The translations under genes were made by a program, and so were the position numbers. From an uncultured Actinomycetes bacterium (GTDB lineage: Bacteria; Actinomycetota; Thermoleophilia; UBA2241), in contig CAVWIH010000026.1 in the NCBI GenBank assembly GCA_963755025.1, positions 40,775-104,774 of the forward strand: DNA of 64,000 bases, in the 5' to 3' direction. Positions 4,427 through 36,134 of the stretch are shown here, in pieces; position 1 is the stretch's first letter; the number at the start of each line of letters is the position of its first letter. The notes beneath the pieces were generated by a model. That model saw only the letters and a program-made list of their open reading frames with translations, was not told the origin of the DNA and did no database searches.

Positions 4427-4639
4427 CTTGAACCCCCCAGTCCTGGACCCGATTGACCCTGCTCGAGTCGGCCCCTGCCTCAGAGAGATCCTGAAGCGAA
4501 AGGCCCTACGATAATGACCATCTTATGTGAGCAGGGAGCGCGGGCGCCAGCGGTCGCCCGGCGGGCCTGACGCACCGGCTCGACAAGCCCATCGCGCCGG
4601 CCGTATCGTGGAAGGCCTGCTACGAAAGGCGTGTCTGGC

Positions 4640-7600
4640 ATGTCCCGCTTGCTCTACCGACTCGGCGCCTGGTGCGCGCGGCGCAAGGTCGTCGTCTTTC
4701 TGGCTTGGCTGGCGGTCATCGCCCTGGTGGCGGCCGGCGTGGTCGCCTTTGGGCTGCGCACCAACAACGACGTCACTCTGCCGGGCACCGGCGCCCAGCA
4801 CGCCTCCGACATCCTGCGCCAGAGCTTTCCGCCCCAGCAGAACAGCCAGAGCCCGGTCGTCTTTCACGCAACGCAGGGCAAGGTCACCGACGCCGGCAAC
4901 AAGCGCGCCATCGAGAGCTCGCTCGCCGCCATCGCGCACGCCGGCCACGTGGCCACTGTCACGAGCCCCTTCTCGCCGCGCGCCGGCAAGCCGCAGGTGA
5001 GCGCCGACGGCACCACGGCCGTCGCCGAGGTGCTGCTCGACGTCAACGGCTTTCAGCTCACCAAGCAGGTCGCCGCCAGCGTGATGGCCGGCGCCGACCC
5101 GGCGCGCAAGGCCGGCCTGCAGGTCGAGGCCGGCGGGTCGCTGGGCACCGTGATCTCGCAGACCAAGCCGCGCGGCAGCGAGCTGATCGGTACCGTGGCG
5201 GCGGTCATCATCCTGGCCTTCACCTTCGGCTCGCTGGTCGCCGCCGGGCTGCCGCTGGTGACCGCCCTGATCGGGCTGGGGATAGGGCTGGGCCTCGTCG
5301 GCCTGCTCGGCCACCTCGTCGCCATTCCCGACTCGGGGCCCACCGTGGCGGCCATGATCGGCCTGGGCGTGGGCATCGACTACGCGCTCTTCATCGTCTT
5401 TCGCCACCGCGACGAGCTCGCCGCCGGCACGCCGGTCGCCGAGTCGATCGCGCGCACCATGGCGACCTCGGGCAGCGCCGTGGTGTTCGCCGGCTGCACG
5501 GTCATCATCGCGCTGCTCGCCTTGCTCGTGTCGCGCGTGCCGCTGCTGGGGGCGATGGGCTACGCCGCCGGCATCGCCGTGCTGGTGGCGGTGCTGGCCG
5601 CGATCACGCTGCTGCCCGCCCTGCTCTCGCTGCTCGGCCACCGCATCGACGGGCTGCGGCTCGGCGGGCGCCGGGCCGCTGTGCGGCAGGGCGCCGGGGC
5701 GGCGACGGTCGCCGCCGGGGCGGCGGGGGAGGCCGATGCGCAGACCGCCGCTACGGCGGCGGGGGAGACTGGTGCGCAGCCTGCCGCGCGTTCGGGCGCC
5801 GACAACGTCTGGGGGCGCTGGGCGGCGCTCGTCACCCGGCACCCGTGGCTGGCCCTCGGCGCCGCCCTGCTCGTCATGGTGCCGCTGGCGCTGCCCACGC
5901 TCACCCTCAAGCTCGGTCAAGAGGACGTGGGCGTGACGCCCACCTCGACCACGCAGCGCCGCGCCTTCGACCTGGTCTCCTCGGCCCTCGGCCCGGGCGC
6001 CAACGGCCCGCTGGCGATCGCCTCGCGGTTCGACCCGGTGGCCACGCCCAGCACCGAGTACACCACTGACAACAACAAGGCGCAGGCCCTCAAGCGCCAG
6101 ATCGACGCCGGCCGGCGCAGCCTGAGCGCGAAGAGCGCGGCGCTCAAGAAAGAGCACGCCGCGCTGACCGCCGACCAGGCCGCGCTGCAGGCGCAGTCGG
6201 CGCAGCTGCACGCCGGCCAGAGCGCGCTGCAGTCACAGGCGGCCGCCTTGCAGGCACAGAGATCGCAGTTACTCGGCGAGGAGGCGGCTCTGACGGCAAG
6301 AAAGGATCGCCTCGCCGCCGAGTCGCAGGCCCTGGCCGCCAGGGGCAAGGCGCTGGCCGCGCAGATCGCCGCCGTGCAGCAGCAGATCGCCGCCTCGAGC
6401 GACCCGGCGCAGGTAGCGCAGCTCGAGGCGCAGCTCGCCGCGCTCGCGGCGCAGGCCCAATCGGTCCAGGCGCAGAGCGCGGCGCTGCAGAAGCAGGCGG
6501 CGCCGCTGGTCGCCCAGGGCAAGCGGCTCGCCGCTCAGGGCGACGCGCTCGCTGCGCAGGGCGATACGCTCAGCGCGCAGGGCGCGGCGCTGCAGGCCAA
6601 GGCGAACGACCTCGCGGCTCAGGGCGCGGCGCTGAAGCGCCGCGCCGCCAGCCTCACGAGCCGGGCCGACCAGCTCCGCCAGGAGCAGCGCCGTCTCACC
6701 GCCCAGGGCAAGCAGGCCGAGGCGCTCAAGAAGAAGCTCACGGCTATGCTCACCAAGGCGGGCGGCGAGGCGCGCGCCACCGACCCGCGCGTGGTGGCGC
6801 TGCAGGACGCGCTGGCGCGCACGGCCGGCGTGGCCTCGGTCTCCCCGCCGCGCGTCGACAAGGGCGGCGACGCCGTCATGCTCGGCGTCACCGCCACGAC
6901 GCGCCCGGCCGACCCCAAGACGGTCGCCCTCGTGCGGCGCCTGCGCGACACTGTGATCCCGGCGGCCACCAAGGGCCAGGGCGTGACCGCCTACGTGGGC
7001 GGCAAGACGGCGGCCTTCGTCGACCTGGCGACGCTCATCGGCGCGCGCCTGCCGCTCGTGATCGCCACCGTGCTGGCGCTGAGCTTTCTCGTGCTGCTGC
7101 TCGCCTTTCGCTCGCTGCTCGTGCCGCTCAAGGCGATCCTCTGCAACCTGCTCGCGGTCGCCGCGGCCTTCGGCATCATCACGGCCGTCTTTCAGTGGGG
7201 CTGGGGGCTGAGCCTGGTCGGCCTGGCCAACCCCTACGGCACCGTGCCGATCGTGAGCTACGTGCCGCTGCTCATGTTCGCCGTGCTGTTCGGCATGTCG
7301 ACCGACTACGAGGTCTTTCTCATCAGCCAGATCTTTCAGTTCCACGCGGCGGGGCAGGGGCCGCACGAGGCGGTGCGCTCCGGCGTGGGCACGAGCGCCC
7401 GGGTGATCACCGCCGCGGCCGCGATCATGGTGACGGTCTTCGCCAGCTTCGTCTTGAACGGCGACCCGGTGATCAAGGAGTTCGGCGTGGGCCTGTCGAT
7501 CGCCATCCTGCTCGACGCCACCATCGTGCGCCTGGTCATCGTGCCGGCCACCATGGTGCTGCTCGGCGAGTGGAACTGGTACCTGCCGCGCTGGCTGCAG

Positions 7601-7687
7601 TGGCTGCCGCGCATCGACCTGCCGCAAGAGGCGCCGGCCGGCGGCGCCGGCGAGGCGCCGGCCGGCGAAGCCGCGCCGGCGGGGTGA
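4640..7687 (+). CDS. MMPL/RND-family transporter with a long coiled-coil insertion
   Basis: MIGLGVGIDYALF and LFGMSTDYEVFL motifs in the two halves; Ala/Gln/Leu heptad region at ~6070-6760. Confidence 0.92.
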   Translation: MSRLLYRLGAWCARRKVVVFLAWLAVIALVAAGVVAFGLRTNNDVTLPGTGAQHASDILRQSFPPQQNSQSPVVFHATQGKVTDAGNKRAIESSLAAIAHAGHVATVTSPFSPRAGKPQVSADGTTAVAEVLLDVNGFQLTKQVAASVMAGADPARKAGLQVEAGGSLGTVISQTKPRGSELIGTVAAVIILAFTFGSLVAAGLPLVTALIGLGIGLGLVGLLGHLVAIPDSGPTVAAMIGLGVGIDYALFIVFRHRDELAAGTPVAESIARTMATSGSAVVFAGCTVIIALLALLVSRVPLLGAMGYAAGIAVLVAVLAAITLLPALLSLLGHRIDGLRLGGRRAAVRQGAGAATVAAGAAGEADAQTAATAAGETGAQPAARSGADNVWGRWAALVTRHPWLALGAALLVMVPLALPTLTLKLGQEDVGVTPTSTTQRRAFDLVSSALGPGANGPLAIASRFDPVATPSTEYTTDNNKAQALKRQIDAGRRSLSAKSAALKKEHAALTADQAALQAQSAQLHAGQSALQSQAAALQAQRSQLLGEEAALTARKDRLAAESQALAARGKALAAQIAAVQQQIAASSDPAQVAQLEAQLAALAAQAQSVQAQSAALQKQAAPLVAQGKRLAAQGDALAAQGDTLSAQGAALQAKANDLAAQGAALKRRAASLTSRADQLRQEQRRLTAQGKQAEALKKKLTAMLTKAGGEARATDPRVVALQDALARTAGVASVSPPRVDKGGDAVMLGVTATTRPADPKTVALVRRLRDTVIPAATKGQGVTAYVGGKTAAFVDLATLIGARLPLVIATVLALSFLVLLLAFRSLLVPLKAILCNLLAVAAAFGIITAVFQWGWGLSLVGLANPYGTVPIVSYVPLLMFAVLFGMSTDYEVFLISQIFQFHAAGQGPHEAVRSGVGTSARVITAAAAIMVTVFASFVLNGDPVIKEFGVGLSIAILLDATIVRLVIVPATMVLLGEWNWYLPRWLQWLPRIDLPQEAPAGGAGEAPAGEAAPAG

Positions 7688-7733
7688 GCGCCCCACCCCG
7701 CGTAGGCAGCGTCCGCACACTTGCTGGCGGTCC

Positions 7734-7992
7734 CTGAGCGCGGAGTCCGGGGGCAAAGGCGGCGGCGATCTCATCACCATCACTGGGGCGGGCTTTACGG
7801 GCGCCACCGAGGTCGACGTTGGCGCGGGCAACCCGGCCGGCGATGTGAGCGTCGACTCCGATTCGCAGATCACCTGCACCGTCCCCGCCTGGGACCCGAG
7901 CGGCACCGAGCTTCCGTACGTGACGGTGACGGTCCCGGCCGGCACGAGCGGGGGCGCTCGACGGCGTCACCTACCACTACCTGAGGCGCTGA
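7734..7992 (+). pseudogene. Isolated IPT/TIG C-terminal domain remnant
   Basis: GGGDLITITGAGFTGATEVDVG...ITCTVPAW...VTVPAGTS matches the C-termini of the two IPT genes; no in-frame start ahead of the domain. Confidence 0.7.
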
Positions 7993-8102
7993 CCGGCGGC
8001 GGTGAGCGGCCGGAGCGCGCGAAGCGTGACGCGCGCGCGGAGCGCTCTCGCGCCGCCCGATCGGTCGCAGGCGACGCCGGCAGCGCGGACCAGGCGCCCC
8101 CG

Positions 8103-8186
8103 CTGGGTACTGCGCCCCAGCCCTGCTAGGCACCCTCGGCACACTTGCTCTGGGGCCGTTAACTCCGGCCTGGCGGGGGTCGATAG
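8103..8186 (+). promoter_or_regulatory. Conserved upstream box plus sigma28-like promoter
   Basis: TAGGCA-N3-TCGGCACACTTG (8127-8147), then TTAA-N16-GTCGATAG (8159-8186). Confidence 0.6.
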
Positions 8187-8275
8187 CTTCAAGTAGACCC
8201 CGGCAAGGGGACGGATCGGCCGCTTGGCAGACCCGCGCGGTTCGAAGCCGGGAGCTAAGCGGCAGGAGGCAGATC

Positions 8276-8636
8276 GTGGGCGAGCAAGACGTGGGGCGGG
8301 CGGGCCGGCACACGGTACCGGCAGCGCCGCGGCTCACTCGTTTGGGCGCTCGCGAGGGCGCGTCGTTGGCACGGTCGGGTTCGCGCCGGCCGTCGTCGTC
8401 GCCCTTCGGCTTTCATGTAGAGGCCCCGGCGTTGCCGGGCGCCGGTGAGGTCGTGGCGTGGCTGCCGGGAACCGACGAGCTCGCGCCGTCGCTGTTCGGC
8501 GCCGCGGAGCTCGAGCCGGCTTCGCCGGGCGACCCGAAGACGCGCCCTGTCGCGTATAGCGTCGCTGTTCACCGCGGGCCTGCTCGGTGTCGTCGTGGCG
8601 CTCCTGTTCGTGCTCGCCGCGGCCGCGCCGCGATGA
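8276..8636 (+). CDS. Small hypothetical protein with C-terminal TM helix (one apparent frameshift near 8540-8570)
   Basis: AGGAGG RBS before GTG 8276; continues in another frame as IASLFTAGLLGVVVALLFVLAAAAPR*. Confidence 0.45.
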
Positions 8637-8655
8637 CCGTGTCGTTACAGCAGAA

Positions 8656-8705
8656 CGTCGCCGAAACGACGCCCGCGGTGGTACCCGCGGGCGTCGTCGG
8701 CGACG
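8656..8705. terminator. Hairpin between convergent transcription units
   Basis: ACGACGCCCGCGG-TGGTAC-CCGCGGGCGTCGT with outer CGTCGCCG/CGGCGACG pairing. Confidence 0.6.
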
Positions 8706-8776
8706 CCTGCTTGTGCGCCCGTCTGGCGGGCGGCTACGTCAGCGCGATCGAGCGCGCACGACTTAGCGGGAGTCGG

Positions 8777-8869
8777 TCAGTCCCACTTCCACCACGCGCC
8801 GCTGGCGACGGCCAGGGCGACGACGAGCGCCAGGCCGATCACGACTCTGCTGTACATGAACCTTTTCAT
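8777..8869 (-). CDS. 30-aa peptide MKRFMYSRVVIGLALVVALAVASGAWWKWD
   Basis: Translated by hand (below the ORF-track cutoff); purine-rich RBS GAGAGAGGGAAC-ATG; paralogous to the adjacent peptide. Confidence 0.75.
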   Translation of the reverse strand: MKRFMYSRVVIGLALVVALAVASGAWWKWD

Positions 8870-8923
8870 GTTCCCTCTCTCTCGTTCACAGTTCCGCTGT
8901 GCGCCTTGGGCTGCAGCCGTGGT

Positions 8924-9019
8924 TCAGCACCACTTCTTGGCCGCGCCACTCGCCAGGGCGATCGACGCGATCAGCGCCACCATCCCGAGCCTCGGGTACT
9001 TGCCGTACAAGACTTTCAT
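8924..9019 (-). CDS. 31-aa peptide MKVLYGKYPRLGMVALIASIALASGAAKKWC
   Basis: Strong RBS GGAGGTTGAG-ATG; shares the LA(V)ASGA-xxKWx ending with 8777..8869. Confidence 0.78.
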   Translation of the reverse strand: MKVLYGKYPRLGMVALIASIALASGAAKKWC

Positions 9020-9110
9020 CTCAACCTCCCTTCGGTGACCCTTCCTGCTTGACCCTGTCACCACGCGCCGGGTCTGCGCGCCGAGCATCGACTGGTCCCA
9101 CCGCTTCTCT

Positions 9111-9138
9111 ATATCGGCATCGCCTCTGTCGGACTTCA
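9111..9138 (-). promoter_or_regulatory. sigma28/SigD-like promoter for the peptide genes
   Basis: Minus strand TGAA-N16-GCCGATAT, about 90 bp upstream of ATG 9019. Confidence 0.6.
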
Positions 9139-9387
9139 CTTTTGAGGCTGGCGGCGTGAGCGCAGAAACTGCCTGCAAAACGCGGGAATCAGCGAAACGC
9201 GATACTAACGTGGCAACACGTACGCCGTTGGGGAGGGGTCGCGTGGGGTGGCCGGCGGCGCCGCGAGCAGCGCGCCGTGGCGTGTCCCCCAACGAGCCGC
9301 CGACGAGCGCATCCGAGCCTGCGGCGGTATGATGCCCGACACGGATGGCGCGCCCGGCGCCCCACGATCTCAGTGAAAGGCGGCCCG

Positions 9388-9786
9388 ATGAAACCCGAGA
9401 ACCTCGGCGAGTACCGCGGCCACCGCGTGACGCTGGACTGGCGCGAGGGCGGCATCGAAGAGCTGCGCATCGCCTGGACCGACTGGCTGCTCTCCATCGA
9501 CGAGCAGACCTTTTACCTGGGACAGGACACGCGCTTCGTCGAAGACGTCCTCGACTGCGACTTCGCCGACTTCGTGGCGGCGGCCCACAGGCGCGCCGAC
9601 CTGATCGTGCCGGTGGGCTCGCCGGCCGGCACCGACTACGACCACGAGCTGCTCAAGGCGACCCTGGCCGCCGGCGTGCTCGACGCGCTCGAGGCGCTCT
9701 ACCGCGAGCGCGGCGAGGAGTTCCTCGAGGTCGTGGGCGAGCTCGACCCCTGGGCGCTCACGGCGAACGCCAACTACGACTCGTAG
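9388..9786 (+). CDS. Hypothetical acidic protein
   Basis: RBS GAAAGG, ATG 9388 (MKPENLGEYRGH...), typical codon usage. Confidence 0.7.
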   Translation: MKPENLGEYRGHRVTLDWREGGIEELRIAWTDWLLSIDEQTFYLGQDTRFVEDVLDCDFADFVAAAHRRADLIVPVGSPAGTDYDHELLKATLAAGVLDALEALYRERGEEFLEVVGELDPWALTANANYDS

Positions 9787-9948: not shown

Positions 9949-10299
9949 CTACTTCAGCCCGAGCGACACCTTGAGCGCCTGATCGACCGCCGCCATCGTG
10001 GGGCCGGACAGCGTTGCGAGCCTGTCTTCGAGCCAGGCGCTGGGCACTGTGCTGATGGTCTCGCAGTGGACGACGGCGGCCTGGCCGGGCTCGGCGGCCG
10101 CCAGCCTGACGAGGAAGGGGTAGTCGGGCCGCGGAGCGGTGGAGACGAGCGCCACGATGGTGCTCGGCGACGAACGGTTGCCGACGTCGTTCTGCACGAT
10201 GAGCGCCGGACGGCGCCCCACGGGCGCCGGGAATGTGACCCAATAGACGTCGCCGCGCGCGGGCGCTGCCCGAGGCGCGGCCGGGGCGGCCGGAGTCAC
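9949..10299 (-). CDS. mazF: PemK/MazF-family toxin (endoribonuclease)
   Basis: RGDVYWV...RRPALIVQNDVGN...TIVALVS motifs. Confidence 0.9.
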   Translation of the reverse strand: MTPAAPAAPRAAPARGDVYWVTFPAPVGRRPALIVQNDVGNRSSPSTIVALVSTAPRPDYPFLVRLAAAEPGQAAVVHCETISTVPSAWLEDRLATLSGPTMAAVDQALKVSLGLK

Positions 10300-33775: not shown

Positions 33776-33858
33776 CGGCGACCGCGAAGACCGGCGTTCC
33801 ACGCTCCGAAGACCGTCAGAGCTTCGCGCTCCGAGTGGCGGGCCTCGCAGCGGCGACC

Positions 33859-36134
33859 TCAGGCCTCTTCAAAGGCGAAGCGCCCTTCGCGCATGAGGCG
33901 CAGGCAGGCCGCGCAGACCGCGGTGTCGTAGCGGCGGCCGCTGCCCTTCTCGATCTCGGCGAGGGCGGCCTCGAGCGGCAGGCGCGGGGCGGTAGGGCCG
34001 GTGGCTGACCATCGCCTCGACGATGTCGGCCACCGCCAGGACGCGCGCCTCGGGAAGGATCTCCGCCGCCCTTCAGACCGGCCGGGTAGCCCGAGCCGTC
34101 GAGGCGCTCGTGGTGCTGGCGCACCATCGCCGCGACGTCGCCGCCGAAGTCGATGTCGGCGAGGATCTCGGCGCCGGCCGCGGCGTGCTGGCGGATCAGC
34201 AGGAACTCGGTCGCGTTCAACGTGCCCGGCTTGCTCAGGATCTCGGCCGGCACGATGATCTTGCCGAGGTCGTGGAGCAGCGCGGCGATGCGCAGCAAGG
34301 CGATCCGCTCCTCGCTCCCAGCCGAGCTCGGCGGCGAGCGCGCAGGCGAGCTGCGGCCACGCGGCGCTGATGACCGGCGGTGTAGGGGTCGCGCAGCTCG
34401 GCCGTCGTGCCCAGCGCGGCGACGCCGGCCTGCAGGGTGCGCTCGAGCCGCGCCGTCGTGTGCGCGAGCTCGCGCTCGGTGCGCTTGCGGGCGGTCACGT
34501 CGCGGACCACGCTCAGCAGGAGGGTCTCGCCGCCGAGCGTGGCGACGCCGCGGGCGCTCACCTCGACGGGGAACACCGAGCCGTCCTTGCGGCGATGCTC
34601 GGTCTCGAAGAGGACGCCGCCGGCCGCCGCCGCGCTCGATCTGCTCCGCGAGCAGCGGGCTCGCGGCCCATCGGTGCGCAGGGCGCGAGATGTCGAGCTC
34701 GCAGGAGCTCCTCGCGCGTGTAGCCGTAGGCCGCCTCGGCGGCCGCGTTGGCCTCGACGATGCGGCCGTCGGTGGCGCGCACGAAGAGCATGATGTCGCG
34801 CGCCTCGGCGAACAGCAGCCGGTAGCGCGGCAGCAGGTCGTCGGCCCGGCGGCGCTCGCTCACGTCGACGTCGGCGACGTAGACGCGATCGAAGGTGTCC
34901 TCGTGACCGGGGGCGACGATGCAGGTCTCCATCACGTGCAGCGCGCGGCCGGCGAGCGTCAGGTTGATCTCCTCGTAACTGGCGTGCGCCCGCCGGCCAG
35001 CATCGCCGCCCAGAAGACGGCAAGCCCCCGGGAGCCGGGCGGATAGAGTCGGCCTGGCGCTCGAGCAGCTCCTCGCGGCTCGACGCCTCGAGAGCGCCAC
35101 GGCGGCGTGGTTCACGTCGAGGGTGCGGGCCAGCGACACGCAGCGGCGTACTCGGCCGGGTGCTCGCGCAGGAAGCTCGCGAGGTCGTCGACCCCCGAGG
35201 CCATGAGCTGCTCGAGATAGGCCTTGGCCGCCGAGTGGTCCTCTTCCCACAGGGCCACCGGCGAGTCCTCGAAGAGCGGAGCGGTAGCGGCGCTCGCTCT
35301 CGGCGAGCGCCTCCGGTCGCGCACTCTGCGGGCGGTGACGTCATGTGTGACGCCGAGCACCGCCATGATCTGATCGTCGTCGTCGAAGCGCGACAAGCCG
35401 CGTGTTCACCCAGCGCTCGCCGTTGGGGTAGACGATCTGCGATTCGGTCTCGTGGGGTTCGCCGGTCGCCAGCACGTTCTCGACGGCCGCCATGATCCGG
35501 GTCGCGGTCGGGCCCTGGAACATGGTCGTGAGCGGCGTGCCGACGAGCTGCTCGGCGGGCACGCCGAAGCTCGTGCGCCGCGGTCGTTCACGAACTGCAC
35601 GCGGCCGTCGGCGCCGACCAGGTAGATCATGTCGGGCGAGGCCTCGGTGACCAGGCGGTAGCGCTGTTCGCTGACGCTCAAACGGCGCTCGCTCAGCACG
35701 CGGTCGGTGACGTCGCGGGCGCTGATCAGGATGCCGCGCACGGCTTCATCGTCGAGGTGGCTGCTGGCCGTCCACTCGATCCAGTGCAGTGAGCCGTCCT
35801 TCGCGCGGATGCGCGTGGTCCCCGTGCTGGGCGCCGGGTCGGTCGCCGCGCTCGCCCGCGGATGGAGGGCCGCGAGCTGCGCCAGATCGTCGTCGGGGAT
35901 GAGCTCGTAGGCGATCAGGCCCGTGACTTCGTCCTGGCTGTACCCGATGAGGCGCTCCACCGAGGGGCTGCAGTACGTCACCCGGGCGTCGGCATCGACG
36001 ATGAGAAGCAGGTCGGAGCTGTGCTCCACGAGCAGCCGTAAGCGGCGTTCGTCGGCGCTTGCACTCGCGCTCGCCGGCGCGCCGCCGTTCGGCGGGCGCC
36101 TGGACGTCCCTGGACCTGTGCTGCTGCGGCCCAA
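33859..36134 (-). CDS. Multi-PAS HD-GYP phosphodiesterase, multiply frameshifted
   Basis: Several PAS/PAC segments; RDPYTAGHQRRV, LHDLGK, HHERLDGSGYP, HRPYR. Confidence 0.85.

Follow-up and report, generated by a model that had tools for sequence, protein, structure and literature searches.

MgrB and SafA, two small membrane regulators of PhoQ in enterobacteria, are single-helix peptides of fewer than 50 residues that act on the membrane part of a sensor and are not encoded in front of it. Here, we describe two micro-open reading frames (micro-ORFs), designated ORF-A and ORF-B, whose products would act in a comparable manner on sensors carrying the MASE9 membrane domain. They lie in a stretch of 64,000 nucleotides (nt), hereafter the window, from an uncultured Actinomycetes bacterium of the class Thermoleophilia (GenBank assembly GCA_963755025.1, contig CAVWIH010000026.1, positions 40,775 to 104,774 of the forward strand). 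As with MgrB and SafA, their expression could be tied to the controlled pathway as feedback, in this case through a WhiG-type promoter and cyclic di-GMP (c-di-GMP). In contrast to these regulators, the family described here is operon-linked to the sensor across a phylum, is marked by the motif [AS]GAxxKW, and has the MASE9 domain, with c-di-GMP or kinase outputs, as its putative partner. The peptides are probably a missing input part of c-di-GMP signalling, and the best reading of the comparative data is that they would be the cognate membrane partner or ligand of MASE9 sensors.

Other described systems resemble this locus in part. KdpF, encoded by the first gene of kdpFABC, and CydX are single-helix peptides of about 30 residues whose genes share an operon with that of a polytopic membrane partner, and KdpF shares with the present pair the first position in the operon. 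The partners of KdpF and CydX are, however, transporters or oxidases, and these peptides show no sequence similarity to ORF-A and ORF-B, no known satellite copies, and no alternative-sigma promoter. In the AgrD/AgrB/AgrC and ComC/ComD systems of Firmicutes, a tiny peptide gene also stands beside a polytopic sensor gene and a further membrane protein, and some of the present loci have histidine-kinase outputs as in Agr. Unlike these systems, the present loci lack AgrB in Pfam scans (DUF5317 is found instead), a conserved Cys for a thiolactone ring, a double-glycine leader, and an ABC exporter; where those systems have a hypervariable mature part, the putative one here is conserved, and the outputs are mostly c-di-GMP enzymes. 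The peptides of Phr/Rap and other RRNPP systems combine a signal-peptide-like N-terminal part with a short C-terminal stretch, as here, but their precursors have 38-57 amino acids (aa) versus 24-36 in the present family, whose tail is conserved. Genes for Rap/TPR-type receptors and Opp were not conserved in the window or in related loci by Pfam, the exceptions being a weak TPR_14 match in L005 and an SBP_bac_5 gene in L006. Judged by sequence or by defining parts, the peptides belong to none of the MgrB, KdpF, or Agr/Com kinds. No published description of the peptide family was found in a search that excludes subscription-only papers and supplementary tables; no mention of DUF5317 was found in the searchable literature, and literature searches on small membrane proteins associated with c-di-GMP phosphodiesterases, and on small proteins of Thermoleophilia, returned nothing relevant.

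ORF-A and ORF-B, a pair of conserved micro-ORFs

The unit under study is carried by the minus strand of the window and comprises the following features:

9135-9138 (-): TGAA, the -35 element of a WhiG/sigma-28-type promoter, assigned by sequence and by the motif conserved upstream of relatives
9111-9118 (-): GCCGATAT, the -10 element, part of the only strict site in the window
9020-9104 (-): 5' leader of about 85 nt, with a putative start near 9100-9104
8927-9019 (-), stop codon at 8924-8926: ORF-A, 31 aa, MKVLYGKYPRLGMVALIASIALASGAAKKWC, a type A micro-protein ending ...ASGAAKKWC
8777-8869 (-), including the stop codon: ORF-B, 30 aa, MKRFMYSRVVIGLALVVALAVASGAWWKWD, a type B micro-protein ending ...ASGAWWKWD
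8647-8714 (-), approximate: strong GC-rich hairpin, likely the 3' end of the A-B transcript

Both ORFs start with ATG behind a purine-rich ribosome-binding site (GGGAGG and GAGAGGGAA) and, by hand count, have G or C at nearly all third codon positions (GC content of the window, 70.6%). These elements, namely two tiny ORFs with ribosome-binding sites, a TGAA-N16 promoter, and a closing hairpin, had been proposed in an initial reading of the letters of this DNA (hereafter, the sequence-only reading), and all were confirmed on the minus strand.

ORF-A and ORF-B are real genes, because a second pair exists, matches occur throughout the genus, start codon, ribosome-binding site, and length are kept, dN/dS values are low, and RNA covers the unit (see below). 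The host assembly, a metagenome-assembled genome of 3.37 Mb in 39 contigs that is 84% complete, contains the second A+B pair on contig C17, in the same order and behind the same promoter type. Every other genome of the genus matched (11 of 11), mostly with several matches each, and ORF length, ATG, and ribosome-binding site were kept in every copy examined. Purifying selection is indicated by pairwise Nei-Gojobori dN/dS values of 0.33 among 21 distinct DNA sequences of A and 0.23 among 20 of B, with the restriction that the sequences were picked by a motif regular expression and the invariance of the motif itself is thus partly built in; invariant residues of A and B use several synonymous codons.

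The small-ORF search that the sequence-only reading had proposed, run with a hidden Markov model (HMM) of 28 sequences against 1.84 billion cluster representatives, returned 46 matches at E <= 0.001, all of them small, among which homologues conserving GAxxKW were found. The matches end in [AS][SG]GAxxKW followed by 0-3 residues, bar five exceptions: two frames running past the motif, one SSAG and one TTGF variant, and one sequence with an E in the tail. KW was kept in 43 of the 44 matches that reach the C-terminal tail, the remaining one showing a KW-to-KR-like change as in L024. In the 28 sequences, K and W never change and S-G-A hardly does. Conservation peaks in the C-terminal SGAxxKW, and in the motif-picked sequences the tail shows little change among the 12 species of the genus, while the N-terminal residues are more variable; tail length varies in the wider family. 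This distribution does not support the initial idea of variable pentapeptides comparable to Phr. The accompanying statement that exactly five residues follow ASGA is correct for the window and most of the genus but fails for some B variants, which carry SGFFHVVPMWLKWD, and elsewhere, where tails have 2-8 residues. A and B differ chiefly in the two residues that precede KW in the tail. In type A, the N-region G-K/R-Y/F-P-K/R-L/V persists from genus to genus.

All these peptides are under 50 aa and have one hydrophobic stretch with basic flanks, with a span between flanking charges of 13-20 residues by hand count. This build agrees with signal-peptide-like or membrane micro-proteins, as initially suggested. 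In a lipobox test, L-[AS]-[AS]-G-A was found to resemble a lipobox, the next residue being A, G, W, N, or Q, and a Cys at +1 is not conserved. Among the 28 members, no Pfam family was matched by more than one member (best E 0.041), NCBIfam returned only ETRAMP for ORF-B (E = 0.15), and in the ESM Atlas ORF-A matched only unnamed clusters of 29-34 aa, at 0.90-0.91. The source databases label the peptides "hypothetical protein" or leave them nameless. ORF-A and ORF-B are assigned, by sequence comparison, to an unnamed micro-protein family that is widespread in Actinomycetota, and the initial view of an undescribed family stands.

Some particular copies deserve mention. In a protein clustering at 90%, the 31-aa ORF-A sits under an unrelated 446-aa transporter-like representative, an artefact that can hide such peptides. 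Genome G022 (L019, C2:272000-281000) contains two identical pairs in an inverted duplication, about 6.3 kb apart, one heading an HD-GYP operon and the other facing tig-clpP-clpX-lon. Genome G009 (L024, C37:94000-97500) has two tandem pairs separated by 960 nt, and one of its B copies ends in KRD instead of KWD.

Genetic context in the Thermoleophilia family

The C17 pair heads an operon whose genes share the same strand: A, B, a gene for a MASE9-HD-GYP (HD_5) protein, and a DUF5317 gene whose start is overlapped by the HD-GYP stop. The order pair, MASE9-HD-GYP, and DUF5317 was also assigned to genus loci L007/35, L009/30, L011/33, L012, L032, L036, L037, and L039, the contig of L009/30 ending within the MASE9 gene and DUF5317 being confirmed only in C17, L035, and L036. 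The module is often followed by a gene for a PMT-like glycosyltransferase and preceded by a divergent GPR1/FUN34/YaaH gene. In other genera, the genes after the pair are, in the orders given, MASE9-HD-GYP and DUF5317 (G012, G022, G019, and G288), DUF5317 and MASE9-HD-GYP-GAF-GAF-GGDEF (G024 and G013), or DUF5317 and PMT (G058), and the module recurs in all six pair-holding genera of this uncultured Thermoleophilia family. Of 55 family genomes, 13 encode DUF5317, and these are exactly the 13 with credible pair matches, the weak pair matches of G104 inside long ORFs being counted as spurious. The statement of the sequence-only reading that no receptor is adjacent is true of the satellite copy in the window only. 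Its hint of a link to c-di-GMP and motility was half right: the c-di-GMP link is much stronger than the letters of the window could show, since at the ancestral locus the pair stands immediately before MASE9-HD-GYP and DUF5317 genes, and motility is not supported, with a WhiG-type promoter and no flagellin found in the 84%-complete genome (see below).

The window pair is a satellite duplicate of the operon-borne C17 pair. Its locus is of the same type as L002/L027, adjoining a 169-176-aa ORF and glyQS without a sensor gene; further satellites lie beside a GGDEF-GAF gene (L038) and an EAL gene (L003). The satellite copy in the window may provide added dosage or serve other MASE9 proteins of the genome. 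No pair was found upstream of the MASE9 gene on contig C13, and an arrangement of one pair per MASE9 gene was ruled out by the presence of four MASE9 matches and two pairs in the genome. An ancestral gene appears, from these sequences, to have been duplicated in the Thermoleophilia family into A and B under a WhiG-type promoter.

A micro-ORF upstream of MASE9-type sensors in other Actinomycetota

Of 401 Actinomycetota genomes sampled, 149 encode DUF5317; the tally includes ten unpublished genomes, none of which contributed a locus to the analysis. When loci were picked by DUF5317 in other families of the class, 19 of 20 contained a micro-ORF ending in [AS]GAG-x-[KR]W-x, 18 with one and L065 with two. 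These micro-ORFs mostly lie directly upstream of a gene whose 610-800-aa product begins with a membrane region of about 240 aa that has neither an annotation nor a MASE9 match in Pfam; the outputs are GGDEF-HD-GYP, HD-GYP, or GGDEF-EAL, and DUF5317 follows. L063, L068, and L070 differ in that the neighbour directly adjoining the micro-ORF is a DUF5317 fusion.

In other classes, 7 of 20 DUF5317-picked loci had a micro-ORF (L081, L083, L086, L088, L089, L092, and L093), and the genomes concerned include some with a GC content of 36-49%. All seven lie directly upstream, on the same strand, of a gene for a membrane-anchored signalling protein, in which MASE9 is recognized by Pfam in four cases. 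DUF5317 is downstream in L083 and L093 and divergent in L081, L086, L088, and L089, its position in L092 not being confirmed. The outputs of these proteins are as follows:

L083, L092, and L093: HD-GYP
L081: GGDEF-EAL
L086: HisKA-HATPase
L088 and L089: GAF-HisKA-HATPase

Twenty further loci were sampled by MASE9 alone to remove the selection on DUF5317. With a strict filter, a micro-ORF was detected in nine of them, versus 0.67 expected from the rate of the filter in the own genome, and the ends of these micro-ORFs range from 101 nt before the first candidate sensor start to 34 nt beyond it. A tenth strict match, in L101, was dropped as not hydrophobic. A looser look added L100, L106, L115, and L116, bringing the total to 13 of 20. 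Read off individual sequences by eye, without a family-wide alignment, the recurring build of distant members is M-K-x-R, 13-20 Ala/Leu/Ser-rich residues, [AS]-G-A, and a tail of 2-8 residues usually containing K/R-W. Tandem identical micro-ORF copies occur in L088 and L093, and a whole-pair duplication in L024.

DUF5317 itself was analysed in the C17 copy (L025:73-636, minus strand), a protein of 187 aa whose structural model (confidence score pLDDT 90.4) has five long helices and a small sheet. Residues N100, G102, M104, P105, D140, S155, G157, and D158 are invariant (alignment A8), and in several genomes (L068, L086, and G022) the domain is fused to, or adjoins, an MFS_1/MFS_3 transporter. 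The model had no PDB match by sequence; the best Foldseek hit had an E of 2.0, and a wide structure search reached at best a Z of 6.7 with generic helices.

A WhiG-type promoter and a WhiG-family sigma factor

The promoter-like sequence TGAA-N16-GCCGATAT spans 9138-9111, upstream of ORF-A. Its strict form, T[ACG]AA-N16-GCCGATA, has a single match in the 64-kb window and 13 sites genome-wide (6.74 Mb of strand), and is present in 14 of 29 distinct upstream regions. Of these 29 regions, 21 carry the loose form, T.AA-N16-.[CT]CGAT[AG], at a conserved distance of 63-118 nt from the start codon of A, the genome background of this form being 0.0022 per 250 nt; the eight regions without it (e.g., L004/5 and L024) carry other sequences there. 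For the C17 pair, the promoter is TAAA-N16-GCCGATAC, at the same distance as in the window. The published WhiG2 consensus is T(A/C)AA-N16-GCCGATAA (bioRxiv 10.64898/2026.01.14.699351), which the window promoter fits with one departure, in the -35 element (TGAA). The genome also encodes a WhiG/FliA-family sigma factor at C7:4210-4887 (TIGR02479, 271.5 bits versus a cut-off of 189.6). Its gene is flanked by dprA-like ORFs and by rpsB-tsf-pyrH, which we take to be the neighbourhood of whiG in Streptomyces. By promoter match and sigma gene, the pair in the Thermoleophilia family matches a predicted WhiG-type (sigma-28 family) transcription unit. A search of the 84%-complete genome gave no flagellin (PF00669), and a flagellar reading of the sigma-28-type promoter was set aside for this reason; nor was the RsiG motif E-x3-S-x2-R-x3-Q-x3-D found there, exact or loosened. 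No WhiG-type site was present in the 20 DUF5317 loci from other families of the class.

In Rubrobacter, an RsiG-(c-di-GMP)-WhiG switch governs type IV pili, with 5 of 12 mapped promoters preceding diguanylate cyclase or phosphodiesterase genes (PMC8325347), and c-di-GMP enzymes and type IV pilus genes are described as enriched among WhiG targets of Rubrobacter and of the phylum (PMC8325347; bioRxiv 10.64898/2026.01.14.699351). The present locus resembles this WhiG regulon of basal Actinobacteria in that its promoter matches the consensus and that the genome has a WhiG-like site before a pilin-like gene; the difference is that the portions of these papers available describe annotated genes downstream of the promoters and do not mention micro-ORFs (PMC8325347; bioRxiv 10.64898/2026.01.14.699351).

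Two further WhiG-type sites of the genome were recorded (loci L046 and L049). One (C32:50129, plus strand) precedes the pilin-like gene C32:50425-50832, which has a prepilin N-methylation motif; the other (C3:19966, plus strand) precedes a gene for an MFS_3-type transporter, from which a second MASE9-HD-GYP gene diverges. The sequence-only reading had also given the HD-GYP gene of the window the same promoter type, a claim that was abandoned when neither a strict nor a loose match was found upstream of that ORF. The HD-GYP match in question (33816-35344, minus strand) covers model positions 42-120 only and lies at the overlap of two ORFs in different frames, 33816-34298 and 34235-35344, which could reflect a frameshift, a pseudogene, or an assembly error.

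Transcripts, leader, and hairpin

Parts of the region 8600-9300 occur in 20 metatranscriptome runs from 18 studies. RNA contigs were mapped from four of these runs, belonging to four studies, and such contigs give neither strand nor true ends. They cover 8691-9149, and two of them (343 and 382 nt) bridge ORF-A and ORF-B. Regions 8600-8690 and 9150-9300 are without cover, which provides an internal contrast to the covered middle and no proof of silence. Upstream contig ends at 9090 and 9092, from two studies, fall short of the start that the -10 element predicts by about 10-14 nt, one contig from a relative extends to 9149, and downstream ends at 8691-8719 coincide with the hairpin. These data show a discrete RNA over the A-B unit without a mapped start, since the contigs lack strand and true ends and one of them reaches 9149.

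The hairpin, about 65-130 nt downstream of ORF-B, has a folding energy of -93.1 kcal/mol (z = -7.1, none of 200 shuffles being as good). For lack of a T-run, it was not called at 8647-8714 by a scan for consensus terminators. In an alignment of 15 genus-level leaders (A3), the conserved blocks CACTGGGACCAG and GGTCGATCTGGTGGGGATC flank a variable hairpin, which in many copies is enclosed by a long-range stem; leader length is about 85-100 nt. Folding z-scores of single leader sequences range from 0.17 to -2.5, the window copy at 0.17 being no better than shuffles. RNAalifold on a MAFFT alignment of the leaders gave three pairs only, and an Rfam search of window positions 8500-9400 returned nothing below E = 0.5. 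With these three pairs, modest z-scores, and no Rfam match, a riboswitch is not claimed.

A cognate membrane partner of MASE9 sensors?

From the genes and their neighbourhoods, we infer a topology, a binding partner, and an effect on c-di-GMP. A and B would be co-transcribed, paralogous single-helix membrane micro-proteins of about 30 residues each. Their basic N-terminus is probably cytoplasmic and would be followed by 15-20 Ala/Leu/Val-rich residues, [AS]GA, and a short tail with the invariant Lys-Trp; this tail would be outside, with Lys-Trp probably at the outer membrane interface. Remaining intact in the membrane, the peptides would bind the MASE9 domain, possibly together with DUF5317, as an intramembrane partner or ligand, and the bound peptide would set the activity of the output domain, which in the Thermoleophilia family is an HD-GYP c-di-GMP phosphodiesterase. 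Control by WhiG would tie the expression of both peptide and phosphodiesterase to a c-di-GMP-sensitive sigma switch. Taken as a whole, this proposal is plausible but tentative. Output domains change from locus to locus, but the micro-ORF remains paired with the MASE9-type membrane domain, a pattern usual for a component that acts at the input, and on this ground the peptide is tied to the input of the sensor. An intact peptide is favoured by the conservation of tail and helix in 12 species, by the conserved motif of type A on the presumed cytoplasmic side, and by flanks that combine basic residues with Trp. Such flanks anchor a short helix in the membrane. Galperin and Chou, who defined MASE9, argued from the shortness of its loops and the burial of charged residues that the ligand is bound inside the membrane, in passages on this domain that do not mention small proteins (bioRxiv 10.1101/2021.11.05.467447). 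A complex prediction made without controls for MASE9 residues 1-240 of the C17 HD-GYP protein with A and B (interface score ipSAE 0.00 in both runs) speaks neither for nor against binding.

Several observations weigh against a peptide that stays in the membrane as a partner of MASE9. The hydrophobic stretch is Ala/Ser/Gly-rich and measures only about 13-16 residues in some members (e.g., L104 and L092/L093), fewer than a stable transmembrane helix would normally have and in the usual range of signal peptides, and [AS]GA fits by eye the -3/-1 rule of signal peptidase I. The linkage of DUF5317 to MFS transporters would suit the export of a processed product. In the host genome, a pair is adjacent to only one of the four MASE9-type genes, and the window copy has no sensor gene alongside. 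Loci L059-L098 were chosen by DUF5317 and do not separate MASE9 from DUF5317 as the true partner, 7 of the 20 MASE9-picked loci had no micro-ORF under the filters used, and related genomes are non-independent samples. Finally, comparative genomics is the whole of the evidence from which binding is inferred.

Part of this evidence would suit an Agr-like signal, in which a precursor is cut after [AS]GA by signal peptidase or DUF5317 and a short xx-K/R-W-x peptide is released or exported, possibly via DUF5317-MFS, and read by the MASE9 domain of the neighbouring sensor in autocrine or quorum sensing. The peptides are built like signal peptides: MKxR comes first, the Ala-rich core measures 13-19 residues, and positions -3/-1 hold small residues. 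The gene logic familiar from agrBDCA and comCDE recurs in a peptide gene that comes first, a polytopic sensor next, and a 180-aa polytopic membrane protein in the cluster. Three loci with histidine-kinase outputs, the tandem copies of L088 and L093 and whole-pair duplications of L024, the confinement of most A/B differences to two tail positions, the invariant D140 and S-x-G-D158 of DUF5317 together with its fusion to or proximity with MFS_3-type exporters, and the occurrence of part of the stretch in 20 metatranscriptome runs all point in the same direction. The putative mature part is nevertheless the most conserved and hardly varies in 12 species, unlike the pherotypes of Agr, ComC, and Phr; the released piece would have 2-6 residues only, two Lys directly follow the putative cut site in type A, a conserved N-region would be unusual for a mere leader, and genes for AgrB, an ABC exporter, and Opp are not conserved in the loci. 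The idea of DUF5317 as an intramembrane aspartyl protease comes from its invariant D140 and S-x-G-D158, and no protease fold matched its model, which speaks neither for nor against the idea. On balance, we regard a cleaved signal as somewhat unlikely. A three-part cassette of many Actinomycetota, with a 24-36-aa precursor, DUF5317 as processor/exporter (sometimes fused to MFS), and MASE9 as a receptor leading to c-di-GMP or a histidine kinase, wired to WhiG here, is similarly doubtful; if true, it would give the phylum its first known Agr-like autoinducing-peptide circuit.

The remaining explanations dispense with MASE9 as the partner. The peptides might work with DUF5317 or with the PMT-like glycosyltransferase, as a small subunit or substrate, the sensor gene being merely a co-regulated neighbour. 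The exact co-occurrence with DUF5317 across 55 family genomes (13 with both), the order pair, DUF5317, and PMT in G058 with no room for an HD-GYP gene, the micro-ORFs abutting DUF5317 fusions in L063, L068, and L070, and the PMT-like genes following in several genus loci would be explained in this way. We find it improbable, as loci with a divergent DUF5317 (L081, L086, L088, and L089) have the micro-ORF on the strand of the sensor and directly upstream of it, and the MASE9-picked sample also puts it immediately before the sensor gene. Regulatory leader peptides, whose translation would control the downstream HD-GYP operon and whose products would be functionless, might be expected from micro-ORFs that are always the first operon genes behind a long conserved leader. 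This is very improbable given that satellite copies such as that of the window have no downstream gene and a hairpin of their own, that the amino-acid sequence is under selection from end to end, and that the motif is conserved across classes of very different GC content. Hardly any credence can be given to type I toxin-like or membrane-damaging small hydrophobic peptides in several chromosomal copies: although the family is small, hydrophobic, multi-copy, lineage-restricted, and nameless, its members are co-transcribed in sense with signalling genes across a phylum and occur as paired paralogues under a developmental sigma-factor promoter, and no antisense RNA feature was seen, Rfam giving no match and the RNA contigs being strandless.

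Other features around the pair

The pair is surrounded in the window by a gene for an MMPL transporter (4631-7687), a 169-aa ORF of no family (9277-9786), a MazF/PemK-like ORF, glyQ, and glyS. The 169-aa ORF belongs to a group of 169-177-aa ORFs, without Pfam or NCBIfam match, that recurs beside satellite-type pairs in several genomes of the genus:

Window 9277-9786 (+): copy beside ORF-A and ORF-B
L002:631-1161: copy in a relative
L006:672-1205: copy in a relative
L027:3281-3811: copy in a relative
L029:4532-5065: copy in a relative

The MazF/PemK-like toxin ORF (9949-10299, minus strand) lies between the 169-aa ORF and glyQ and is perhaps an insertion, a 176-aa ORF directly abutting glyQ in the locus L002/L027 of a relative. 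Between the MMPL gene and ORF-B, positions 7700-8640 (plus strand) contain no clean long ORF and possibly represent a decayed surface-protein gene; by eye, the fragment 7845-8129 (+) resembles an IPT/TIG-type repeat, and 8445-8636 (+) has a hydrophobic helix plus Arg at its end.

Concluding remarks

The finding goes beyond a local oddity, the comparisons placing ORF-A and ORF-B in a predicted family that is tied to MASE9 sensors and DUF5317 and is duplicated here under WhiG-type promoters. Standard gene callers rarely name such ORFs, and predictions of WhiG regulons that take the first annotated gene after a promoter can skip the true first genes of an operon. The MASE9 domain commonly serves as the membrane input of HD-GYP, GGDEF/EAL, and kinase proteins. 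A micro-protein encoded right before the sensor is a concrete, testable candidate for the missing ligand or co-sensor of this domain, which would link an unannotated class of tiny genes to the control of c-di-GMP.

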